This document shows, one piece after another, positions 27,862 through 62,174 of a stretch of 64,000 bases of DNA (within the stretch, counting starts at the first letter, position 1; each line of letters begins with the position of its first letter). Origin of the DNA: Bacillota bacterium (GTDB lineage: Bacteria; Bacillota; Clostridia; Christensenellales; SZUA-584); contig JAEYKW010000015.1 in NCBI GenBank assembly GCA_023408075.1, positions 319,170-383,169 of the forward strand. Reading direction: 5' to 3'. The position numbers were made by a program, and so were the translations under genes. The notes under the pieces are model-generated. The model ran no database searches. It was not told the origin of the DNA and was given only the letters and a program-made list of their open reading frames with translations.

Positions 27862-27911
27862 GCCTGGTGACCCACCGGAGATTCGAACTCCGGACACCTT
27901 GATTAAAAGTC
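27862..27911. repeat. Prophage attachment site, left copy (orphan 3' fragment of tRNA-Lys)
   Basis: 50/50 identical to 62096..62145. It contains the T-arm, acceptor 3' strand and CCA but no 5' half, so it is not a functional tRNA. Confidence 0.9.
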
Positions 27912-28033: not shown

Positions 28034-28058
28034 TTCTGATGCAGTAAAAATGCAGTAA
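28034..28058. repeat. 25-bp direct repeat TTCTGATGCAGTAAAAATGCAGTAA, left copy (candidate integrase arm-type site)
   Basis: Identical to 61992..62016. It carries the internal tandem ATGCAGTAAA x2 and lies 122 bp inside the left att copy. Confidence 0.5.
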
Positions 28059-34313: not shown

Positions 34314-36179
34314 TTACGCCCTCGCCCTTAGTACACTCTGTTTTCTTGCCGACCTAAACACTTCGTAAGGTGACGGGTTATTGTTATTGTAAATATTGTA
34401 GGTATTCCCCGTCTTGCCGGAGCCCATCGACGCAGTATCCGAGGCTGTGTGAACATATGCCCCGGACGGCAGCGTGACCGCTTCGGGTCCTTCTTCTCCA
34501 ACCACATACGTACCAGCCTCATTAATTGGCCCGCCGTCAGCTTTAAACAGCCCAATGATCCAATCAATGGCACCGCCGAAAATCTCAAACAGCCATTTTA
34601 TCGGCGTCACAATAATCTCTATCAATGCCCCGATTGGTTTAAGAATCGGTGCCAGCAGTTCTAAAACACCAGCTATTGCACTAATCAGCGGTTCTAAGGC
34701 AGGCAGCAGCGTTTGCGCCAAAATTCCAACCATATCAAATACGGGTGACAATGCATCGAATACAGTTGATACCAAGTCAATGATCGGCGGCAAAATGGTA
34801 TCAATGATCACGTTGAGCAGTTTGGTGATGGGCGGCAGCAGCTTCTCAATGAGTGATTTGAAAATGGTCATGAGCGGCGGAAGGATAGTCTGAACAAACG
34901 TATTAAACATATCCATCAGCGGCGGAAGGATCGTATCAATGACGCTCTGAAATAAATCCATCAGCGGCGGCAACAGATTCTCTATTAAGGCTTTAAAGAC
35001 CGTTTCCAGCACCGGAAGGATTTGCTCAGAAAATACTCGGAACAGCTCCATCAAAGGCGGCATGATGCTGGCTATGATCGTCTGGAACAACCCGATGAGC
35101 GGCGGAAGGAGGCCTTCAATAAATGTCGTGAACATCTCCGCCAGTGGCGGCAGTATATCCTCCGTGAAAACCTTAAACAGTTCCATGAGCGGCGGCATCA
35201 CAACGGATAGAATTTCGGTAAATATCGTCAAGAGTGATCCGATCAGGGCCAGTATCGGCTCGAGCGCCGTCATAAGTGGGGGCAGCACGTCTTCAATTAA
35301 TATATTAAAGAGATCCATGAGCGGCGGCATAAGCGTGTTTACGAGCTCCCCAAAAGCGCCGATTATCATCGTGAAAAGTGGAGCCATAGCCGCCATGATG
35401 CCGGGAAGAGATTCCATCAAGACATTGATCAGGCCCGTCACAACCGGCATAAGGGTTGATAGGGCCGACGTGAGCCCGCTTGAAACCGTCGTTTGAAGCT
35501 GTGACAGCGTATCGCTGAGCGTGGCTCCGGCTTCGACAGTGTCCTCACCCAGCACAATACCAAGATCATTTGCCTCTGTTTTCATAGCCGAAATGCCATC
35601 TGCGCCCATTTCAAATACGGCACCGAGCTCGGTTGCCGACCGTCCGAGAAGCGCACTGGCAAGCGCCGTGCGCTCTGTCTCATTGGTCATACCTGATAAA
35701 CCTGAGATCGTCTCGCTTAAAAGCGTCTCCTGATCTTTTAGATTCCCGCTCGAATCCGTGACCGAAATCCCAAGCCTTTTAAACGCATCTGCATACTGGC
35801 CTGTACCGCCTACCGCATCCTGTGCCGCCTTTGCCAAAGTCTTCACGCCCACCTGCAGCGTTGAAATATCCGCACCGTTCTGTGACAAGATATAATTCCA
35901 TTCCTGATACGCTTTCGTGGAGATGCCTATTTTATCAGAATTTTCGCTGATATCATCACTGGCCGAGGCCACTTTGGTAACGAGCGCGGACACGGCGGTT
36001 CCGGCAGCAGCAACGCCGGAAACGATCGCCGCGCCCGATTTTAAAATGCTTGCGCCTGTCGAGCCAAATGATCTGGATGTCTTCTCCCCGGCAGAGTTCA
36101 TGCTTGCAAGGTCTTTATGAACGGTATCGGTGCCCTTCATCAAGGCTTCGCCGTATACCTCAAACAGTTTAACTGCCAC
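34314..36179 (-). CDS. Tail tape measure protein
   Basis: 621 aa, follows the frameshifted chaperone. Ala/Gly/Ser-rich helical N-terminal part and 12 or more tandem 15-aa LPPLMxLF repeats. Confidence 0.85.
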   Translation of the reverse strand: MAVKLFEVYGEALMKGTDTVHKDLASMNSAGEKTSRSFGSTGASILKSGAAIVSGVAAAGTAVSALVTKVASASDDISENSDKIGISTKAYQEWNYILSQNGADISTLQVGVKTLAKAAQDAVGGTGQYADAFKRLGISVTDSSGNLKDQETLLSETISGLSGMTNETERTALASALLGRSATELGAVFEMGADGISAMKTEANDLGIVLGEDTVEAGATLSDTLSQLQTTVSSGLTSALSTLMPVVTGLINVLMESLPGIMAAMAPLFTMIIGAFGELVNTLMPPLMDLFNILIEDVLPPLMTALEPILALIGSLLTIFTEILSVVMPPLMELFKVFTEDILPPLAEMFTTFIEGLLPPLIGLFQTIIASIMPPLMELFRVFSEQILPVLETVFKALIENLLPPLMDLFQSVIDTILPPLMDMFNTFVQTILPPLMTIFKSLIEKLLPPITKLLNVIIDTILPPIIDLVSTVFDALSPVFDMVGILAQTLLPALEPLISAIAGVLELLAPILKPIGALIEIIVTPIKWLFEIFGGAIDWIIGLFKADGGPINEAGTYVVGEEGPEAVTLPSGAYVHTASDTASMGSGKTGNTYNIYNNNNPSPYEVFRSARKQSVLRARA

Positions 36180-54406: not shown

Positions 54407-54835
54407 ATGGATTTTATTGAAAAACTAAATGCCTTGTTAAAAGAGAAGGGTATCAGTCGTGCCGAACTAGCTAAAAATGCAGATATTCCATATACCACTA
54501 TCGTGAGTCTATATGAAAAGGGTTATCAGAATGTCAAACTCTCTACTTTACGTCGGCTCGCATCCTACTTTAGGTGTAGCCTAGATTATCTTACAGATGA
54601 TTCTATATCAGACAGATACTTCGGTGTTACAGCTGACTATGCAAATGGAAGAACGAAACATAAGAATGCCATTATTTTAGAAGGTGATTTGCTCCCACCT
54701 GAACTTCAAGGTCTTGATATTAAACTTGAAGTTATTAAAGCTGTCGCTGATAGCGGGCTGAACGAGAAGGAAATAAAACTCGCTTTAAAACTCTATAAAC
54801 TGTACTCAGAGGATTACACCGATGACCACAAATAA
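54407..54835 (+). CDS. CI-like prophage repressor (XRE HTH, no S24 autopeptidase domain)
   Basis: KGISRAELAKNADIPYTTIVSLYEKGYQNVKLSTLRRLASYFRCSLDYL. 142 aa. Divergent from cro. Confidence 0.75.
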   Translation: MDFIEKLNALLKEKGISRAELAKNADIPYTTIVSLYEKGYQNVKLSTLRRLASYFRCSLDYLTDDSISDRYFGVTADYANGRTKHKNAIILEGDLLPPELQGLDIKLEVIKAVADSGLNEKEIKLALKLYKLYSEDYTDDHK

Positions 54836-55247
54836 TAATTGATTTTATTTTCACAGTCTACGCTCCTTTTTTAAGAAAGCTCACATCTAAATCGCTGAAT
54901 ATATATTAACAACTTCTAGGTGTTCATGTCTCTCTAATCATTATATCAAAAAGCTAAGTCGCACTACTATTAAGTTTAACTCTTTTTAAATTTCAATCTA
55001 CACATCAAATTAATCATCACTTTTTCGACTCAAAAGCATTATACCACTAAATTTGAACTCACTACTGCAATCTTTCTTACCTTCACTTCGCTATTTATTA
55101 ATTTGTCAATACCTAAAATAAAATTCTTATTGATGTAATACTTCTTTGCTGTTATGATGGTAACACAAGAAAACTTAACATGTCAATAAACGGAAACATT
55201 TGCATTTGAATCGCAAGAATGCATAACATTCATATCGAGGTAGAATA

Positions 55248-55955
55248 ATGAGTGTAAAAAAAGCAGATGAAAATAATTACAATAAAGCTTTTCCATCAAG
55301 ACTCAGGGCTTTATTAGACAATGAAAATCAAATTAGTCCTCTTGGAAAGAAAGTTACTCAAGTAGAACTTGCCCAGGCTTTTCATGACAATGGGATACCT
55401 GTAACTCGGCAAACAATAAGCTTATATGCTAATGGCAATACTACACCGGACATTGAGAAGTTCAAATTTATTGCGGACTATTTCAAAGTATCATATGACT
55501 TTTTACTTGGTGTTTCTGAAGCTACGAGTAGAGATAACGTGCAAATAAATAAAGAACTTGGATTATCCGAAAAAGCTATAAATGAGCTTAAGAAAATTAA
55601 AGATATGGGAAAAGACGGTCAAGCTATGCCAAGAGATATAAATTTTATATTTCAAACAATTGATTTTTTGATATCAGAAAACTGGTTCTTTATTGTTTCA
55701 CCTGTCGCCCGTTATGCCCTTACTTTATCAAAAATAAAAAAAGAAGTGAGGAACGAAGAAGAAAAAGGGAAGAAATTATATGTTGATTCATATAAATTAC
55801 CCACTGAATTAAGTCCCCATCTTAGATTTATCGAATGGGAAATGGTGGAGATGATACGCGACACTACAAAAAAACTAGCAGAAAAACTAAGTGATAAATT
55901 TGATACGGATGGATTACAGGAAAAAATCGATTCAGATTTAAATCAGTGGTTGTAA
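55248..55955 (+). CDS. XRE-family HTH protein with a ~150-aa uncharacterised C-terminal domain
   Basis: KVTQVELAQAFHDNGIPVTRQTISLYANGNTTPDIEKFKFIADYFKVSYDFLLG. Candidate promoter TTGATG-17-TATGAT roughly 90 bp upstream. Confidence 0.7.
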   Translation: MSVKKADENNYNKAFPSRLRALLDNENQISPLGKKVTQVELAQAFHDNGIPVTRQTISLYANGNTTPDIEKFKFIADYFKVSYDFLLGVSEATSRDNVQINKELGLSEKAINELKKIKDMGKDGQAMPRDINFIFQTIDFLISENWFFIVSPVARYALTLSKIKKEVRNEEEKGKKLYVDSYKLPTELSPHLRFIEWEMVEMIRDTTKKLAEKLSDKFDTDGLQEKIDSDLNQWL

Positions 55956-56185
55956 ATGAAAAGCCGCTTAAGGATGAAAGCGGCCTTGGCGGAATGCGCC
56001 ATCTCTGGTAGGCAAATGAATCTTGGGCTATTGGCCCTCCGTAATTTAGGAGGGCCTTTTTTATTCTGCTATAATTAGCATATGCAGGAATTAGCGACAA
56101 TCTGTCGAAATAAGCAAAATAAGGTTGCGCATCATAAGCACTTTCATCTTTGCCTCTCAGCCCACCGCACTCATGGAGGTTAATT

Positions 56186-56662
56186 ATGAAAAGAATCTTA
56201 GCCATTATCCTTGTATGCTTCTTAGCGATCTCTTTTATAGCTTGCAGCCAATCATCAGCCCCAGATGAAAAAACACTGGCAAAAGCAAAAAGTTCTGTTT
56301 CCTCTCTTGTTAAAGATAGCACGGCGGAACCGACACAAAAACAGGCTATCATATCAACCGCCACGCCATCACCGGAACCGACGCTGGAGCCTACGCCGGA
56401 GCCGACTCCATCTCCCACGCCCGAGCCAACGCTGAAGCCCACCAAAGCACCAACGCCCGAGCCCACAATCGAGCCGACACCGGAACCCGAGCCAGCTGTC
56501 GTTGACGAGCCGAAGTCTGACGCCATTTACATCACAAAGACAGGTGAAAAATATCATCTGAGCGGGTGCCAGTATTTGAAGAAAAGCAAGATACCCATAT
56601 CGCTTGCCGATGCCAAAGCACAAGGATATACGCCTTGTTCAAAGTGTAACCCGCCGCAATAA
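56186..56662 (+). CDS. Prophage lipoprotein: Pro/Thr-rich linker plus a C-terminal Cys-rich (YH..C...C..C) small domain
   Basis: GGAGG RBS. Signal with lipobox ISFIAC. Linker PSPEPTLEPTPEPTPSPTPEPTLKPTKAPTPEPTIEPTPEPEP. C-terminus YITKTGEKYHLSGCQYLKKSKIPISLADAKAQGYTPCSKCNPP. Confidence 0.7.
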   Translation: MKRILAIILVCFLAISFIACSQSSAPDEKTLAKAKSSVSSLVKDSTAEPTQKQAIISTATPSPEPTLEPTPEPTPSPTPEPTLKPTKAPTPEPTIEPTPEPEPAVVDEPKSDAIYITKTGEKYHLSGCQYLKKSKIPISLADAKAQGYTPCSKCNPPQ

Positions 56663-56674
56663 GGAGCAATTATT

Positions 56675-56887
56675 ATGGCAAATAGGGGCGGCCTTTCGTG
56701 GAAGCGCGCGCTGGGCGTTACCAAGGCCAAACAGAGCATATCCCGGGCAACGGGCATTCCTATGACGAAGTCCGGGCGGCAGAGAAAAATCGGGAAAGCC
56801 GTAACCGGTGGCGGCTGCCTGATGACTCTATTAGGCTTATCCGTTCCCGTTATTTTGGTTGTCACGGCTCTGATTATATTGATTTAA
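56675..56887 (+). CDS. Tail-anchored small membrane protein with a basic N-terminus
   Basis: 12-nt gap after the lipoprotein gene. MANRGGLSWKRALGVTKAKQSISRATGIPMTKSGRQRKIGK, then one TM (LMTLLGLSVPVILVVTALIILI). Confidence 0.55.
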   Translation: MANRGGLSWKRALGVTKAKQSISRATGIPMTKSGRQRKIGKAVTGGGCLMTLLGLSVPVILVVTALIILI

Positions 56888-56975
56888 TATTCCCTGCAGC
56901 AGAACCGGACCGACGATTATACATAATATCAGCTGTTATCTACACCAAATTCACAATAAAAAACAGGAGGATATC

Positions 56976-57719
56976 ATGAATAAAAAACGAGTATTAGTAG
57001 TGTCACCCTTTGAAGATTTGCATCAAGAGAGAAAGATCATATCCGAAAGCCTGCAGCAGTCATCTGATTCTTTAATAGTTGAAAACTGTTCAGTTGTAAA
57101 TACAATCAGATTCAAGAAAAAAAGTGTTTTCATCTTGATATGTGATCAAAACATTAATGAAATTGAATCCCTCGAGGTATTTAAGCGTGCAAGACGAAAA
57201 CTTAATCGAATAATTATATTGGCAAAAGGTAGTTGCGCCGATCTTTATGATATTAGGCAAAAAGCCTCAATTGTCCAATGGAACAACATTAGCGATTTAG
57301 GGTGGTCGTTAGTAAAATATTTCGAGAGTGTTTTTTACTCATGGAAATGCGATAAGGTCGTAAGAAATACATTTTTACAATTCACGATAATAAGTTTGCT
57401 ATTAGTTCCGCTGTATGTACTATTTCCTGAATTTTTTATGAATTACTTTAATTCTTATAAACTTAGAATATCCCTTTTGTCTATTTGTTTATTATTGCTT
57501 ATTTATAATATACTTAGAGAAGGAATTATTTATCGGGCTGAAAATATACGCCCGGAAAGCAGAGCTCGGTTCTTTAAACCACTAATTAGAGATTTGATTT
57601 TGATTTGTGCTATTCTATTTTTGTCTATTTTGGTGACGGATGATATCGGCACATTTTTAATCTTTATTGCGCCGATGATTATTTCAGGATTAATTTCGGT
57701 TATTATAAAAGGACGCTGA
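56976..57719 (+). CDS. TIR-like/DUF4062-like N-terminal domain fused to a four-TM C-terminal domain (candidate abortive-infection effector)
   Basis: AGGAGGATATC-ATG. The N-terminus RVLVVSPFEDLHQERKIISESL...SVFILICDQ resembles the VFxSSxFxDLxxER signature I associate with DUF4062. Four hydrophobic helices lie between roughly aa 133 and 245. Confidence 0.5.
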   Translation: MNKKRVLVVSPFEDLHQERKIISESLQQSSDSLIVENCSVVNTIRFKKKSVFILICDQNINEIESLEVFKRARRKLNRIIILAKGSCADLYDIRQKASIVQWNNISDLGWSLVKYFESVFYSWKCDKVVRNTFLQFTIISLLLVPLYVLFPEFFMNYFNSYKLRISLLSICLLLLIYNILREGIIYRAENIRPESRARFFKPLIRDLILICAILFLSILVTDDIGTFLIFIAPMIISGLISVIIKGR

Positions 57720-57908
57720 AAAAGTTTCCAAGAAAAGTACGAAAGAATATCTTACGCCGTTAACCACACGAGGCCATCCATCAGAAGAAGCTCCGGATTC
57801 AAGATTGGCAATAAGCAGATTTATAAGGGGGATTGACTGGGGGAGTGTATTTTATTTGCGTTTTGCGTGTCAAAAACAAAACTCGCTTTTTCAAGTGGTG
57901 TATTCTGC

Positions 57909-57937
57909 TTGTATTTTTTATACCAATGGTGTAAAAT
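57909..57937 (+). promoter_or_regulatory. Candidate sigma-A promoter TTGTAT-17-TAAAAT for the 57971 operon
   Basis: TTGTAT at 57909-57914, a 17-nt spacer, then TAAAAT at 57932-57937, 33 nt upstream of the ATG. Confidence 0.4.
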
Positions 57938-57970
57938 ACAATTGAAATACAGTGATTCGAGGTGTTTTTT

Positions 57971-58603
57971 ATGGAAATATCGCCCCTAGAGAGTCTTGAA
58001 AACAGATTCCCTGTCCTTTTACCTTCAATAAACGGAGCTATTGATGAATCATACTCTGAAGTGGAAATGATGCTGACGACTGATCGATGCAAAAAACCTT
58101 GCTGGCGTGACTACATCCCAAAATTCTTATATTCCGCTGTGCAAACAAATGTGTGCGACAAGATCAATTTACTGGGGATCCCTGATCTTCGGGCCGAAAT
58201 GAAACTTAACAGTCGGCACAACCTCAATCATGTTGAAATCTATGGTCCCGATTTTGTGATGACGATATCTTCTGCAGACGGAGATAAAAAACCAAGACCT
58301 GCCGTTTATAGAGATGAACTCTCAACCGGAGGACAAATAAATTGGTTCCGAGAGTTTAGTGAAAACGATGACGAAGATAAACAGGTTTATTTCACAATCA
58401 CGCATCAGATTAATAAGGACGAGTTGCAAGCTGATGATATAAGAATTATTTTAATGTCATCGTCTTTATGGAGCGAGACTATTAACGAAAGTATACGAGA
58501 TCGTCAAATGCCTATTGAAAATATTACACAGACAAGCACACCGGTTGCGAAGGAAGAGACGATCACCAAGCCCGTAATGCCGGAATTGAAAATAACAAAT
58601 TAA
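57971..58603 (+). CDS. Uncharacterised 210-aa protein (candidate toxin/effector partner of the XRE-M78 protein)
   Basis: GAGGTG RBS then ATG 57971 (MEISPLESLENRF...). I recognise no motif. 40-nt gap to the next gene. Confidence 0.55.
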   Translation: MEISPLESLENRFPVLLPSINGAIDESYSEVEMMLTTDRCKKPCWRDYIPKFLYSAVQTNVCDKINLLGIPDLRAEMKLNSRHNLNHVEIYGPDFVMTISSADGDKKPRPAVYRDELSTGGQINWFREFSENDDEDKQVYFTITHQINKDELQADDIRIILMSSSLWSETINESIRDRQMPIENITQTSTPVAKEETITKPVMPELKITN

Positions 58604-58643
58604 GGTTTAAGCCTTAAATTTAATAAAAAGGAGATGATATGCC

Positions 58644-59786
58644 GTGTCTAGAAGTGATGCATTATTTATTGGACACCGTTTGACAGAGGCACGCGAAGTT
58701 AGAGGTACCACAAAGCAAGAATTAGCAGATTTATTGGGTAAGACTCACCAAACAGTTACCTCATATGAAAATGGATCGTACAATCCGGCACCTGAAGTAA
58801 TCGATGATATTTGTCGTATTCTAAAGTTGCCTTTGTCTTTTTTTACAATCGACAGAACCGACAGCTTAATCAATGCCCCGATTCAATTTCGAAGTTTAAA
58901 AAGCGCACACAAGGTCAAAAAACTTCAGATTGAAAGATGGCTTCAGTGGGTGGCAAATCGTGTTGGATACTATAAACAATACATGGACTTCCCTCCGGTA
59001 AACTTACCAAAATTCGATCTTGATTTTGGTAAACTCAGTGAATCTCAGATAGAAAATATAGCAGAAAGCGTGCGGAAGTTTTGGGGGTTAGGTAACGGTC
59101 CCATAAGCAATTTAACTCTGCTTCTCGAAAACAACGGTATTATTGTTACTCATTATAACTTCGAAGTAAAAGGTTTAGATGCTTGTTCGACGATCGCTAA
59201 TGGATTACCGCTAATACTAATCAACACTTTTGAAGCCACGTGCTCAAGGATCCTTATGGATTTAGCACATGAGCTCGGACATCTCGTTTTGCATGCCGAT
59301 GTTGATAAAGACGAGATAACCCCTGCTCAGCATAAACAAATGGAAGATCAGGCATGGGATTTTGCTGCTGCATTTTTAATGCCTGCTGATGGCTTTTCTT
59401 GCGAAGTCGTAGACACTAGGCTCACAGCTTTTGCTCTTTTAAAACGAAGGTGGCGCGTCTCGATAGCTGGGATGATTATGCGATGCCGTGAATTGTGTAT
59501 AATTGATGATTTCCGAAAAACGTATTTGTTTAAGGAAATGAACAGAAGAAAGATACGTTTAGTCGAACCCCTTGATAACGAATTAAAGATTGAAACTCCA
59601 CATCTTCTTATTGATGCAGAAAAGCTACTAACAGAGTCCGGTGAGTTAACAAAGTGGTATCTTTTAGACGCGTCCTATATTTCAGCTGATGATTATTGCA
59701 GCATTGTCGGAACTCCGACTGACTATTTTAAACGAGAAACGGTTCAACCGAAGTTAAGGCCAGATTACATTAGAATCGTAAAATAA
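58644..59786 (+). CDS. XRE-HTH :: ImmA/IrrE (peptidase M78) fusion protein
   Basis: N-terminal HTH (TTKQELADLLGKTHQTVTSYENGSYNPAPEVIDDICRILKL). M78 motifs LAHELGHLVLH and EDQAWDFAAAFLMPADGF. AGGAG RBS. Confidence 0.85.
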   Translation: MSRSDALFIGHRLTEAREVRGTTKQELADLLGKTHQTVTSYENGSYNPAPEVIDDICRILKLPLSFFTIDRTDSLINAPIQFRSLKSAHKVKKLQIERWLQWVANRVGYYKQYMDFPPVNLPKFDLDFGKLSESQIENIAESVRKFWGLGNGPISNLTLLLENNGIIVTHYNFEVKGLDACSTIANGLPLILINTFEATCSRILMDLAHELGHLVLHADVDKDEITPAQHKQMEDQAWDFAAAFLMPADGFSCEVVDTRLTAFALLKRRWRVSIAGMIMRCRELCIIDDFRKTYLFKEMNRRKIRLVEPLDNELKIETPHLLIDAEKLLTESGELTKWYLLDASYISADDYCSIVGTPTDYFKRETVQPKLRPDYIRIVK

Positions 59787-59803
59787 GCCGGGAGCTATTT
59801 TAA

Positions 59804-60817
59804 ATGGATGATAATAAAGGCAGGATCATTCTCTATCAAACCGAGGATGGCCGGACGAAGATCGATGTCAGAATGGATAACGAAACAGTATGGCTCTCGC
59901 TCGATCAATTGGCTGATCTGTTTCAGCGCGATAAATCTACGATCTCGAGGCATATAAAAAACATCTTTGAAGAGGGCGAGCTTTCTATGCAATCAGTTGT
60001 TGCAACTTTTGCAACAACTGCTGCTGATAAAAAAACATATCAAGTCACTTATTATAGCCTCGATGCCGTGATCGCAGTTGGCTACCGAGTGAAATCGCAC
60101 AGAGGCACACAGTTCAGGATTTGGGCGACTGAGCGCCTAAAGGAATACCTCGTTAAGGGCTTCACAATGAACGACGACCTGCTTAAAAAGGCGGGTGGCG
60201 GTGATTATTTTGAAGAACTCCTTGAGCGCATCCGGGATATCCGATCTTCGGAGAAGGTGTTTTATCGCAAGATACTCGACATCTACGCGACCAGCGTCGA
60301 TTATGACCCGAGAGCCGACATATCCCAGACGTTCTTTAAAACCATACAGAACAAAATGCATTGGGCCGCTCACGGTCACACAGCAGCCGAAGTTGTATTC
60401 TTAAGAGCTGATGCCGTCAAGCCTTTTATGGGCATGACGTCTTTTCAAGGAAGCAAGCCAACGAAAGCAGAAAGCACCATCGCCAAGAATTATTTGACCG
60501 GTGAAGAGTTAAATATCTTAAACCGCATTGTGAACGCCTATCTGGAATTTGCAGAGTTGCAGGCCATTCGCCGCAACACGATGGCCATGCACGAATGGAT
60601 ATTAAAGCTGGATGACTTTCTCAAAATGACGGACAGCAACATTCTCACGCACTCAGGAAGCGTCTCTCATAAAGACGCCGAGATAAAAGCGGTGCAAGAA
60701 TACGAAAAATATAAAAGGCTGCACCAGGACAAGCTTTCACCGGTGGAACAGCACTTTTTAGAGAGCATCGAAAAAACCAAAAAGCTACTTGATAAAAAAG
60801 ATAAGAAGGACAAATAA
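59804..60817 (+). CDS. RhuM-family (COG3943-like) protein
   Basis: ILYQTEDGRTKIDVRMDNETVWLSLDQLADLFQRDKSTISRHIKNIFEEGEL... and AVGYRVKSHRGTQFRIWATERLKEYLVKGF are characteristic of the RhuM family. Confidence 0.8.
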   Translation: MDDNKGRIILYQTEDGRTKIDVRMDNETVWLSLDQLADLFQRDKSTISRHIKNIFEEGELSMQSVVATFATTAADKKTYQVTYYSLDAVIAVGYRVKSHRGTQFRIWATERLKEYLVKGFTMNDDLLKKAGGGDYFEELLERIRDIRSSEKVFYRKILDIYATSVDYDPRADISQTFFKTIQNKMHWAAHGHTAAEVVFLRADAVKPFMGMTSFQGSKPTKAESTIAKNYLTGEELNILNRIVNAYLEFAELQAIRRNTMAMHEWILKLDDFLKMTDSNILTHSGSVSHKDAEIKAVQEYEKYKRLHQDKLSPVEQHFLESIEKTKKLLDKKDKKDK

Positions 60818-60843
60818 TCGGCCAGTCGAGGAAGGGAGTCCGC

Positions 60844-62016
60844 ATGCCACGTGAAGCAAAGATAAAAAAGCGCCCTGACGGCTTCTATCAGCGATCAATC
60901 ACCGTGGGCCGCCGCCCGGACGGAAAACCGCAGCGCAAAACCATATACGCCAAAACACTCAAGGAGCTCGAGGCCAAGGCTGCCGAGTTTGAAAGACAAC
61001 TTCTTCACGGTACACTCTCCAGTGATGAAAAGATGACTTTCGGTGAGCTGGCTGCGGTGTGGCTCCGGGATTATAAACCGGGCATCAGTATCACCACGCG
61101 CACCATGTACAAAAGGGTGCTGGATACCCACCTGCTGCCGGAGCTGGCCGTATATAAGCTGAAGGATCTCAAACCCCATCATCTACAGACCATCATCAAT
61201 CGCATGGCTGAGAGCGGCAAAGCAGAGAGCACAATGCGAAAGGTTAAGTTGACCGCCGCCCAAATCCTTCAGATCGCCATGGATAACGATATTCTTTACC
61301 GCAACGTATTTTCAAAAGTCAATGTCCCGGATGTGCCTGCCGCCAAGCGCCGCCCGCTGACAGACGAAGAGGTCAAGCTTGTGGTAGATACTCATACCGG
61401 CCACCGCATGGGCGTGCCCGTGCTGCTGCTGCTGTATTGTGGGCTGCGCCGTGGCGAGCTGCTCGCGCTCACATGGAATGATATTGATCTGAAAAACAAA
61501 ACTGTTACTGTCAACAAGGCGGCAGTATTCGATGTGAATATCACGCTGATGCAGACCCCCAAGTCGGCCGCAGGCGTTCGAACGGTCCCGCTGCCCGATA
61601 ATGTCTTGGAGGCCGTCAGCGCCGCCAGAAAGGCCGCACAATCGACAATGGTCTGCCCTGCAACGGATGGCCGCATTATGTCGGCTTCAGCCCTTACTAA
61701 GGCTTGGAGTAGCTATCTACACTATCTCAACATTAAAGCCGGTGGTCGTGACGCATCACGGACCCGCCCCAAACTCTCGGTGATCGACAACCTGACTCCG
61801 CATATGTTCAGGCATACATACGCCACCATTCTTTATAACGCCGGTGTCGATGTGAAGAGCGCGCAGCGGTTTCTCGGGCATGCCGATATCAATGTCACGC
61901 TTAAGATATACACCCATCTTTCAGCCCAAAAAGAGCAGGAAGCTATCGACTCATTGAACCGTCATTTAAGCAGTAATGAAACACGAAAAAATTCTGATGC
62001 AGTAAAAATGCAGTAA
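60844..62016 (+). CDS. int: Tyrosine-type site-specific integrase
   Basis: N-terminal SAM-like/arm-binding region. Catalytic motifs GLRRGELLAL, HMFRHTYAT, LGHADINVTLKIYTH. Confidence 0.9.
   Translation: MPREAKIKKRPDGFYQRSITVGRRPDGKPQRKTIYAKTLKELEAKAAEFERQLLHGTLSSDEKMTFGELAAVWLRDYKPGISITTRTMYKRVLDTHLLPELAVYKLKDLKPHHLQTIINRMAESGKAESTMRKVKLTAAQILQIAMDNDILYRNVFSKVNVPDVPAAKRRPLTDEEVKLVVDTHTGHRMGVPVLLLLYCGLRRGELLALTWNDIDLKNKTVTVNKAAVFDVNITLMQTPKSAAGVRTVPLPDNVLEAVSAARKAAQSTMVCPATDGRIMSASALTKAWSSYLHYLNIKAGGRDASRTRPKLSVIDNLTPHMFRHTYATILYNAGVDVKSAQRFLGHADINVTLKIYTHLSAQKEQEAIDSLNRHLSSNETRKNSDAVKMQ
61992..62016. repeat. 25-bp direct repeat TTCTGATGCAGTAAAAATGCAGTAA, right copy (overlaps the last integrase codons)
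   Basis: Identical to 28034..28058. It lies 79 bp from the right att copy. Confidence 0.5.
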
Positions 62017-62095: not shown

Positions 62096-62145
62096 GCCTG
62101 GTGACCCACCGGAGATTCGAACTCCGGACACCTTGATTAAAAGTC
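62096..62145. repeat. Prophage attachment site, right copy (supplies the 3' 47 nt of the intact tRNA-Lys)
   Basis: 50/50 identity with 27862..27911. Confidence 0.9.
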
Positions 62146-62174
62146 AAGTGCTCTACCGCCTGAGCTAGTGGGTC
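62099..62174 (-). tRNA. tRNA-Lys (anticodon UUU), CCA encoded
   Basis: Hand-folded cloverleaf: acceptor GACCCAC/GTGGGTC, anticodon arm CTTGA-CTTTTAA-TCAAG, T-arm CGGAG-TTCGAAT-CTCCG. 76 nt. Confidence 0.9.

Follow-up and report, generated by a model that had tools for sequence, protein, structure and literature searches.

A Probable Prophage-Borne Module of the RosmerTA Type in a Christensenellales Genome and a Conserved Glutamine Motif in Its Rare Toxin Family

Introduction

Rosmer systems pair a Zn-peptidase antitoxin with a toxin of unknown function and protect bacteria against phages; the study that described them reports that transformation with an rmrA deletion failed (bioRxiv 10.1101/2022.05.11.491447). 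A phage-encoded Rosmer system protects against phages as well (PMC10440598). In RipA/RipB (Spr1630/Spr1629), a Rosmer-type system of Streptococcus pneumoniae, the toxin binds the pocket of the DnaN sliding clamp and the antitoxin needs ClpX. In S. pneumoniae as in E. coli, clpX or clpP reportedly becomes essential in the presence of a Rosmer toxin, and in three Pectobacteriaceae strains the essentiality of clpX correlates with carriage of a Rosmer system (PMC13566846).

The window considered here is a stretch of 64,000 nucleotides from a Bacillota bacterium (Clostridia; Christensenellales; SZUA-584; assembly GCA_023408075.1, contig JAEYKW010000015.1, positions 319,170 to 383,169 of the forward strand). 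Near its end are two adjacent genes which an original prediction, made from the letters without database searches, read as a Rosmer-type toxin-antitoxin module whose first protein could not be placed. Here, we compare this pair, rmrT and rmrA, with the described systems, ask what else it could be, and consider how its toxin may act.

The Locus and Its Prophage

The pair is carried by a 34,234-bp prophage delimited by a 50-bp exact direct repeat (attL, 27862-27911; attR, 62096-62145); an independent contig of 34,244 bp shares this end point. Within this prophage, rmrT and rmrA occupy a low-GC accessory region (33-40 % GC, compared with about 50 % elsewhere). The features of the region are:

57909..57937, forward strand, putative sigma-70 promoter of rmrT-rmrA, with −35 TTGTAT (57909-57914), a 17-nt spacer and −10 TAAAAT (57932-57937), as read from the sequence
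57909..57941, no strand assigned, perfect 9-nt inverted repeat, TTGTATTTT (57909-57917) and AAAATACAA (57933-57941), its arms 15 nt apart and overlapping the −35 and −10
57971..58603, forward strand, rmrT, 210 aa, acidic (pI 4.7), cytoplasmic, no transmembrane segment, predicted toxin/effector of the Rosmer pair
58644..59786, forward strand, rmrA, antitoxin/regulator of 380 aa: XRE HTH at aa 10-68, then a linker helix, the M78 Zn-peptidase core at aa ~130-255 and, at aa 260-355, a helical C-terminal region
59804..60817, forward strand, RhuM-family gene, a PADLOC candidate defence gene (PDC-S05, 6e-161; Pfam PF13310, 4.7e-108), 17 nt past the rmrA stop
60844..62016, forward strand, prophage tyrosine integrase (Pfam Phage_integrase and SAM-like N-terminal domain)
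62096..62145, no strand assigned, attR, overlapping the 3' part of tRNA-Lys(TTT) at 62099-62174

The rmrT frame opens with an ATG at 57971 behind the ribosome-binding site GAGGTG (57959-57964); this start is preferred over an in-frame GTG at 57962 because RmrT homologues begin with M-x-x-SPL. rmrA opens with a GTG behind AAAGGAG (58627-58633). The two genes are co-oriented, and the gap between them is exactly the predicted 40 nt. The RhuM gene is possibly co-transcribed with them. A terminator-like hairpin at 59706-59719 is inside rmrA and was not counted as a terminator.

Does the pair have a promoter of its own? The TTGTAT-17-TAAAAT sequence given in the original prediction is present. It matches only 8 of 12 consensus positions, a score below the threshold of a consensus scan, which did not list it, and by itself it is not above chance. 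Every column of the sequence aligns with the TTGCAA-17-TATAAT that precedes the closest homologous operon (L002), and of the nine other homologous loci examined, most have a TTGACA-like/TAnnAT pair 25-60 nt 5' of their toxin gene. The RmrA HTH may use the inverted repeat that covers the −35 and −10 as its operator, and four of the 16 TGTATTT boxes of the window fall in 57846-57951; these observations are only suggestive, because the TGTAT box overlaps the −10-like sequence. The idea that the TGTAT box is an operator conserved across loci was rejected, the box being in part an artefact of the −10 region, and only the window's own inverted repeat was kept.

RmrA, a Fused HTH-M78 Protein

The antitoxin is matched by the PADLOC RmrA model PDLC03947 (E = 1.1e-106) over aa 4-365 of 380, and by 13 further RmrA models; PHROG 2439 (1.9e-90) matches it too. 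Pfam places HTH_3 in aa 15-67 and Peptidase_M78 in aa 186-275, in agreement with the predicted combination of an XRE HTH and a complete M78 signature: HELGH occupies aa 209-213 (nt 59268-59282) and is followed by E234...W...FAAAFLMP247, in which E234 is the downstream Glu of the HExxH motif. H209, E210, H213, and E234 are invariant in 43 homologues. The C-terminal extension that had been put at ~90 aa exists but is about 105 aa long; it is conserved and integral to the RmrA family, and the PADLOC models extend over it. Its residues K267, W270, E308, and P309 are invariant. In the AF2 model (pLDDT 92) this region is all-helical, and Foldseek finds the fold of RmrA in CapP (7t5t, 4.8e-5) and IrrE/PprI (5e-4). 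By its sequence, RmrA belongs to the RmrA family over its full length and is a predicted catalytically complete HExxH...E M78 protease.

RmrT, a Rare and Divergent Predicted Toxin

The 210-aa protein has zero matches in Pfam, NCBIfam or PHROG. It is nonetheless not the unrecognisable partner that it was taken for, because the PADLOC RmrT model PDLC03933 matches it, modestly and across only aa 19-157 (E = 5.8e-15); nor is it the founder of a possible new toxin family, being a divergent member of the RmrT family already modelled in PADLOC. The same model matches all 19 aligned RmrT relatives (best 2.1e-45), and the family also cross-matches PADLOC 03934, 03938, and 03940. Both features that had been pointed out, the acidic ENDDEDK patch at aa 131-137 and a tail rich in Thr and Pro, are present.

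Relatives of RmrT occur in Enterococcus, Lacticaseibacillus and E. coli phages and on a Zymomonas plasmid, but the family is rare: an exhaustive HMMER search of 1.84 billion proteins yielded 16 representative clusters at 50 % identity. This search, and walking from RmrA homologues, were needed because a word index misses the family, returning essentially the query alone whether it was asked with the single sequence or with a profile; the RmrT alignments (A3 and A2) diverge too much to serve in pattern-based searches for loci. The GTDB species representatives include one RmrT relative, in the same MAG as L003; no close relative was found in IMG/VR and none in INPHARED by tblastn. On these sequence comparisons, RmrT is a divergent, rare branch of Rosmer toxins.

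Identity of the Module

The two genes travel together. In 10 of 10 independent metagenomic or MAG loci (the window itself, or L001, and L002, L003, L005, L006, L007, L008, L010, L011, and L013), an RmrT homologue of ~200-230 aa is encoded directly 5' of an HTH-M78 gene of ~375-400 aa, and the toxin-antitoxin order is kept in Enterococcus phage Efs 1-1-1, Lacticaseibacillus phage R24.2, E. coli phage Tritos, and the Zymomonas plasmid; this synteny holds in every locus examined. Toxin and antitoxin identities drop together across loci (54/65, 44/54, 34/50, and 19/46 %), and the homologous loci adjoin mobile or defence genes: a SLFN/AlbA_2 ATPase, serine recombinases, a Zeta toxin with toxSAS, Abi_C with RelBE, HokD, and another prophage integrase end.

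The proposed check against the PADLOC Rosmer models returned matches for both proteins, and the Rosmer-type toxin-antitoxin reading is upheld by the full-length RmrA, the RmrT model match, and the strict synteny. rmrT/rmrA is very probably an anti-phage toxin-antitoxin module of the RosmerTA type; it forms an accessory (“moron”) cassette of the 34-kb tRNA-Lys prophage, placed between the integrase of this prophage and its lysogeny genes. Judged by what its family does, RmrT would be toxic, RmrA would neutralise it, and the pair would protect against phages. The published Rosmer systems suggest that the operon would be transcribed constitutively in the lysogen; RmrA would repress it through the HTH, for which the inverted repeat is the candidate operator, and would keep RmrT harmless, probably aided by host ClpX/ClpP, a help proposed because Rosmer toxins reportedly make clpX/clpP essential and clpX essentiality tracks Rosmer carriage. 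Infection by another phage would lift RmrA control, and RmrT would then arrest the cell, so that the infection aborts. As such, the locus adds to the prophage-borne Rosmer systems and is ordinary within this known defence family.

Could the HTH-M78 protein serve the prophage itself? The alternative entertained in the original prediction is an ImmA-type anti-repressor, a prophage induction protease that cleaves the CI-like protein encoded at 54407 or the XRE protein at 55248 after DNA damage, the 210-aa gene being an unrelated accessory. The M78 domain is homologous to the ImmA/IrrE/CapP proteases, which cleave XRE-family repressors; the CI-like protein has an HTH and, as originally stated and now confirmed with Pfam, lacks an S24 domain; and rmrA is in the lysogeny-side region near the integrase. 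However, the end-to-end match of RmrA to its own model (1e-106) is far stronger than its match to the CapP model in PADLOC (6.6e-13), its HTH is fused to the protease rather than standing beside it in a separate repressor, and rmrA is separated from the 54407 gene by 3.8 kb and several other genes, with the closest separate XRE gene ending 2.7 kb upstream. Moreover, in non-prophage contexts the linkage of rmrA to the RmrT gene is strict, and the pair co-diverges; an anti-repressor function is very improbable.

If rmrT/rmrA were a pure addiction module, its sole part would be to stabilise the prophage or another element by post-segregational killing, and it would not act against phages. A Rosmer antitoxin gene is indispensable wherever its toxin is active, homologous pairs on plasmids adjoin RelBE and HokD, and RipAB of the pneumococcus serves a physiological purpose outside defence, the induction of competence. 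We nevertheless regard addiction alone as unlikely: tested Rosmer systems protect against phages, homologues reside in defence-type neighbourhoods, and the module adjoins the candidate defence gene RhuM/PDC-S05 in a typical prophage defence hotspot next to the integrase. Besides, addiction and defence are not mutually exclusive.

How Might RmrT Act?

The value of the locus is as a lead on the mode of action of Rosmer toxins, since it offers a small soluble toxin family with a confident AF2 model and one strikingly conserved motif in a disordered loop. The model of RmrT (pLDDT 83, pTM 0.77) shows helices followed by a beta-beta-beta-alpha-beta-beta arrangement; the protein lacks a hydrophobic segment, its highest 19-residue Kyte-Doolittle mean being 0.78. 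The motif maps to:

58334..58348, forward strand, codons of Q122-I-N-W-F126; this conserved Q-x-x-hydrophobic-aromatic motif opens the sole low-confidence loop of RmrT (aa 121-134, pLDDT < 50 in AF2), with the acidic patch after it

The Q122 column holds Gln in 22 of 23 unique RmrT-family members, and the strict motif is found at this site in 11 of the 23 and nowhere else in 4,906 residues. Its variants include QINWF (the window), QLSLF (Zymomonas), QLELF, and QTSLF, and the RipA family has an analogous column (QMELV, QLSFF, QTSFI). The canonical clamp-binding motif is defined as Q-aliphatic-x-[LM]-[FL] (PMC11139829), which only two of the 23 RmrT-family members fit; QINWF is non-canonical, with Trp at position 4, where the canonical motif has Leu/Met. 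We hypothesise that the QINWF motif resembles a beta-clamp-binding motif and could dock in the DnaN clamp pocket, where the unrelated Rosmer toxin RipA binds. On this basis we propose, tentatively and as a reading more likely wrong than right, that the RmrT family (PADLOC 03933/34/38/40) is a second family of beta-clamp-targeting Rosmer toxins, sequence-unrelated to RipA, whose motif would insert in the hydrophobic pocket of DnaN and stall replication; for the RmrT of the window itself, the clamp idea is weak. Were it true, Rosmer systems would have an effector logic in common, clamp poisoning checked via ClpX: a widespread defence family would be tied to replication arrest, and the pneumococcal RipA result would be joined to the reported ClpX/ClpP dependence of these systems.

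Is RmrT simply a RipA homologue? RipA and RipB sequences were recovered from metagenome contigs via published primer sequences. RipA matches another RmrT model, PDLC03931 (1.6e-80), and not PDLC03933; compared with the RmrT family of the window it scores 3-5 bits in hmmsearch and a probability below 1 % in hhalign, and PADLOC and blastp likewise leave the two unlinked. Homology was rejected at the level of sequence by these four comparisons. A bridge through the antitoxins was also sought in the NCBIfam spr1629 family, but none of five (187-223 bits) reaches the cut-off of 335.

The same conserved residues can be read in another way, in which RmrT would be a nuclease built on a degenerate restriction-endonuclease-like (alpha-beta-beta-beta-alpha-beta) core, N80, H87, E89, R109, R114, Q122, and H145 would form the active site, and the Gln loop would be catalytic, or is where RmrA binds or cleaves, rather than a clamp motif. 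The AF2 topology is in keeping with such a core, the conserved polar residues are grouped on the sheet and on the helix that comes after it, and PD-(D/E)xK proteins (HincII, RecU, Hjc, PvuII, EcoRV, NucC, CinB, UL24) make up most of the weak Foldseek lists from both libraries, PDB and BFVD. Yet none of these matches is significant (best E 0.01 in PDB and 0.005 in BFVD; TM 0.2-0.3, at most 0.33), the canonical acidic/lysine triad is missing, there being no conserved D...(D/E)xK signature among the conserved columns of RmrT, and Q122 is in a loop which AF2 does not place; a PDB sequence search with the RmrT toxin profile gave no match. We do not assert that RmrT is a nuclease, the topology and the make-up of the weak lists being only pointers, and hold this reading to be doubtful. 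With low confidence, we favour DNA replication or DNA itself as the target of RmrT over membrane damage, because RmrT is soluble, acidic and free of transmembrane segments, and because weak hints of a restriction-endonuclease-like fold coexist with a conserved Gln motif in a disordered, acid-flanked loop.

Comparison With Known Systems

RmrA shares the M78 protease fold and an XRE-HTH partner domain with ImmR/ImmA of ICEBs1, DdrO/IrrE of Deinococcus, and the CBASS regulators CapH/CapP. In these systems, protease and HTH repressor are separate proteins whose output is transcriptional de-repression, whereas the window encodes one fused chain together with a toxin. The C-terminal domain of IrrE is GAF-like in the published structures, unlike the helical region of the RmrA model. 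Caulobacter SocA/SocB offers a different kind of parallel: SocB blocks replication through the beta-clamp and is checked via ClpXP, with SocA as a proteolytic adaptor. The RipAB paper names this pair as a convergent case; if the clamp hypothesis is right, it would be a possible functional analogue of rmrT/rmrA, with no relationship in sequence or domains, since SocA is not an HTH-metalloprotease.

The RosmerTA of Gordonia phage Kita (RmrT-D5/RmrA-D25; Ernits et al., 2023) is also phage-encoded, has an ImmA-type antitoxin, and has been shown to protect against phages; its toxin is membrane-anchored and depolarises the membrane, for which RmrT has no hydrophobic counterpart. RipA/RipB has the same gene order, with a spacing of 14 nt instead of 40 nt, and RipA resembles RmrT in being of similar size, soluble, and endowed with an internal Q-x-x-hydrophobic motif (QMELV) beside an acidic stretch. 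RipB and RmrA are homologous over their full length (NCBIfam spr1629 family, NF052239; 2.6e-57), but RmrA, at 194.6 bits, stays below the family cut-off of 335, and the toxins fall to different RmrT models. The nearest likeness is to RosmerTA as first described (Millman et al., 2022) and as modelled in PADLOC and DefenseFinder: like the window module, it is a toxin-first two-gene operon with an XRE HTH-M78-C-terminal antitoxin, found on prophages and in defence-type neighbourhoods, and its RmrA HMMs match the antitoxin of the window end to end while its RmrT HMM matches the toxin.

A RosmerTA Module in a Prophage

The two co-oriented genes rmrT and rmrA are a RosmerTA module in a typical prophage location. 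The original prediction of a Rosmer-type toxin-antitoxin pair was right: in PADLOC, the products match the RmrT and RmrA models, both components of RosmerTA. The prophage (34,234 bp) is bounded by a 50-bp exact direct repeat (attL/attR; 27862-27911 and 62096-62145) that overlaps the 3' part of tRNA-Lys(TTT), and an independent 34,244-bp contig, assembled from a different sample, ends at the same point.

Plus-strand features in order, from 54407 to 62016

54407-54835, +, CI-like HTH protein, first in the run (142 aa, XRE-HTH)
55248-55955, +, second XRE-HTH protein (235 aa)
56150-56662, +, putative lipoprotein ORF (170 aa, read by eye)
56976-57719, +, 247-aa membrane protein ORF, directly upstream of the Rosmer operon (translation by eye)
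57909-57937, +, putative promoter: TTGTAT (57909-57914), 17 nt, TAAAAT (57932-57937)
57971-58603, +, rmrT (ATG start, 210 aa; RBS GAGGTG at 57959-57964)
58644-59786, +, rmrA (GTG start, 380 aa; AAAGGAG ten bases 5')
59804-60817, +, RhuM-family gene (Pfam, 4.7e-108; PADLOC candidate defence gene PDC-S05, 6e-161)
run ending at 62016, +, integrase, last gene, following the RhuM gene

Both rmr ORFs lie where they had been placed, exactly 40 nt apart. The RhuM gene is separated from the rmrA stop by 17 nt and from the integrase gene by 26 nt; together, RmrTA and RhuM make up a small defence islet at the prophage's integrase end. The GC content is 33-40 % at 52-60 kb (lysogeny and accessory genes) versus ~50 % elsewhere in the prophage and in the flanking chromosome, which suggests that this stretch was acquired separately and is of mosaic origin.

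Several other features of the prophage deserve mention. The 54407 and 55248 XRE-HTH proteins on the lysogeny side lack both S24 and M78 domains, and the search of adjacent genes turned up no stand-alone protease of the ImmA kind. Read by eye, the putative lipoprotein carries a Cys lipobox in its signal peptide, then a long linker rich in Pro, Thr and Glu, and ends in a small C-terminal domain rich in Cys (GCQYL...CSKCNPPQ); its Pfam match is compositional only. The 247-aa protein begins with an alpha/beta-looking domain of ~120 aa (VLVVSPFED...), after which come several hydrophobic segments that look transmembrane; Pfam, PADLOC, NCBIfam and PHROGs give no match, and its gene may be a further accessory, exclusion or defence gene of the prophage. 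The integrase gene's final 25 nt, stop codon included (61992-62016), have an exact second copy at 28034-28058, ~120 nt in from the prophage's left end; this may be the remains of an earlier integration or a scar of recombination. In the structural region, a 621-aa ORF (34314-36179) contains eight degenerate repeat copies (34783-35330, minus strand) at 45- or 90-nt spacing, a periodicity reminiscent of tape-measure proteins.

Does the operon have its own promoter, as proposed? TTGTAT-17-TAAAAT is present, but it matches only 8 of 12 consensus positions and is for this reason missing from a consensus promoter scan; taken alone, it is no better than chance. Its backing comes from homologous operons: the closest (L002) has TTGCAA-17-TATAAT, which aligns column for column with the window promoter, another (L003) has TTGACC-17-TATAAT, and in most others a TTGACA-like/TAnnAT pair precedes the toxin gene by 25-60 nt. 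Given these pairs, the operon very probably has its own promoter. Both window hexamers lie within a perfect 9-nt inverted repeat, TTGTATTTT-N15-AAAATACAA, a reasonable candidate for an operator bound by the RmrA HTH.

RmrT Is a Recognizable Partner of RmrA

The 210-aa protein, with its ENDDEDK patch (aa 131-137) and Thr/Pro-rich tail, had been described as an unrecognisable partner and perhaps a new toxin family. Although nothing in Pfam, NCBIfam or PHROG matches it, the PADLOC RmrT model PDLC03933 does (5.8e-15, aa 19-157), and the partner is thus recognisable; the same model matches all 19 members of the RmrT alignment, leaving the new family without support.

Because a word-index homologue search with this protein returned only the query, the pairing was examined both ways. 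From the antitoxin side, the six closest RmrA homologues (65, 54, 50, 46, 43 and 41 % identity) each have a 210-226-aa gene directly upstream; four of the six upstream products are 54, 44, 34 and 19 % identical to the window RmrT, the other two ~20 %, and the RmrT and RmrA identities drop in parallel across loci. From the toxin side, 1.84 billion representative proteins, searched exhaustively with HMMER, yielded 16 RmrT clusters at E <= 1e-3, a rare family; a 376-388-aa HTH-M78 gene lies immediately downstream in all three clusters looked up. The family HMM also matches the upstream genes in Enterococcus phage Efs 1-1-1 (5.7e-19), a Zymomonas plasmid (2.9e-18), Lacticaseibacillus phage R24.2 (2.7e-16) and E. 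coli phage Tritos (4.6e-15); these four toxins, too, match models of PADLOC group 03933/34/38/40. The neighbourhoods are mobile or defence-like and vary by locus (SLFN/AlbA_2 ATPase; serine recombinases; Zeta toxin and toxSAS; Abi_C and RelBE; HokD); at one homologous locus (L011), the pair is again at the integrase end of a prophage. Such changing surroundings mark rmrT-rmrA as a self-contained, mobile module of two genes.

RmrA: Antitoxin or Anti-Repressor?

RmrA comprises HTH_3 (aa 15-67) and Peptidase_M78 (aa 186-275) domains in Pfam. It matches 14 PADLOC RmrA models (top, 1.1e-106, aa 4-365), PHROG 2439 (1.9e-90) and the NCBIfam "spr1629 family repressor/antitoxin" (2.6e-57; 194.6 bits, under the equivalog cut-off of 335). 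The predicted HELGH (aa 209-213) and E234...FAAAFLMP motifs are all found; H209, E210, H213 and E234 are invariant among 43 aligned homologues, as are K267, W270, E308 and P309 in the C-terminal region, which makes the "C-terminal extension" part of the family and no add-on. In a confident AF2 model (pLDDT 92, pTM 0.89), the HTH is followed by a long linker helix and an alpha/beta protease core, and the C-terminal region is helical throughout; in Foldseek, the protease resembles CapP (7t5t, 4.8e-5) and IrrE/PprI (5e-4), and the HTH resembles C.BclI and CapH.

Could RmrA instead be an ImmA-type anti-repressor protease, as the original prediction allowed? ImmA-type proteases are stand-alone enzymes that adjoin their repressor substrate. 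By contrast, the window M78 protease is fused to its own HTH; the CapP model fits it far less well (6.6e-13) than the PADLOC RmrA models, which span it from end to end; and rmrA accompanies the toxin gene outside prophages and co-diverges with it. An anti-repressor role is thus highly improbable.

Proposed Mechanism

Rosmer pairs a Zn-peptidase antitoxin with a toxin of unknown function and protects against phage; transformation with an rmrA deletion was not achieved (bioRxiv 10.1101/2022.05.11.491447). One such system, encoded by a phage, acts as a defence in E. coli (PMC10440598). RipA, a Rosmer-type toxin of S. pneumoniae, binds DnaN at its hydrophobic pocket, and the cognate antitoxin, RipB, is functional only with ClpX (RipAB paper); in Pectobacteriaceae, clpX essentiality correlates with Rosmer carriage (PMC13566846). 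By this published logic, the operon would be constitutively expressed and autorepressed in the lysogen, RmrT would be neutralised by RmrA, possibly with ClpX/P help, and infection would release RmrT.

A Conserved Gln Loop and Comparison With Other Rosmer Toxins

The AF2 model of RmrT (19 sequences; pLDDT 83, pTM 0.77) has three N-terminal helices followed by beta-beta-beta-alpha-beta-beta, with one low-confidence loop (aa 121-134). The suggested Foldseek search gave no significant match in PDB or BFVD; its weak lists contain mostly PD-(D/E)xK proteins, at most a hint that RmrT may be nuclease-like, and their catalytic signature is not conserved in the RmrT alignment. A conserved C-terminal tail, (A/V)KEExI-x5-6-P-x-LK(K) (aa 193-207 of the window protein, nt 58547-58591), has basic residues at its end in about 13 of the 23 family members; modelled as coil, it could be an antitoxin-binding segment or a protease (ClpX) recognition tag. 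The Rosmer toxin of Gordonia phage Kita depolarises the membrane; RmrT, an acidic protein (pI 4.7) that lacks any hydrophobic segment, is unlike it.

The part of the locus most worth pursuing is a conserved Gln-x-x-hydrophobic-Phe loop. P108, Q122 and R114 are the most conserved RmrT columns (23 unique relatives); Q122 is the first residue of QINWF, which lies where the disordered loop starts and just ahead of the acidic patch, and relatives have QLSLF (Zymomonas), QLELF, QTSLF, QTTLF, QISIF, QYNLF, QLSFF or QFDFF. At this column, 11 of 23 sequences fit the strict pattern Q[LIMVTFY]x[LIMFW]F, which is found nowhere else in 4,906 residues. It resembles the beta-clamp-binding motif, which can lie in internal loops, benefits from acidic flanks and is canonically Q-aliphatic-x-[LM]-[FL] (PMC11139829); only two family members are canonical, and QINWF, with Trp at position 4, is not. 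That RmrT might bind the DnaN sliding clamp via this loop is a lead, not a finding, and a rather doubtful one.

How does this compare with RipA? RipA (Spr1630; 243 aa) and RipB, recovered from S. pneumoniae-type metagenome contigs (L023-L031) via primers published with the RipAB paper, allow a comparison: RipA matches a different RmrT model, PDLC03931 (1.6e-80), and has no significant similarity to the window RmrT family by hmmsearch, blastp or hhalign. In a three-sequence alignment of RipA with the phiCD418 and phiCT9441A toxins (both PDLC03930), QMELV/QLSFF/QTSFI share one column, and RipA begins with MLNQDLF; either element could be the unreported motif by which RipA binds the DnaN pocket.
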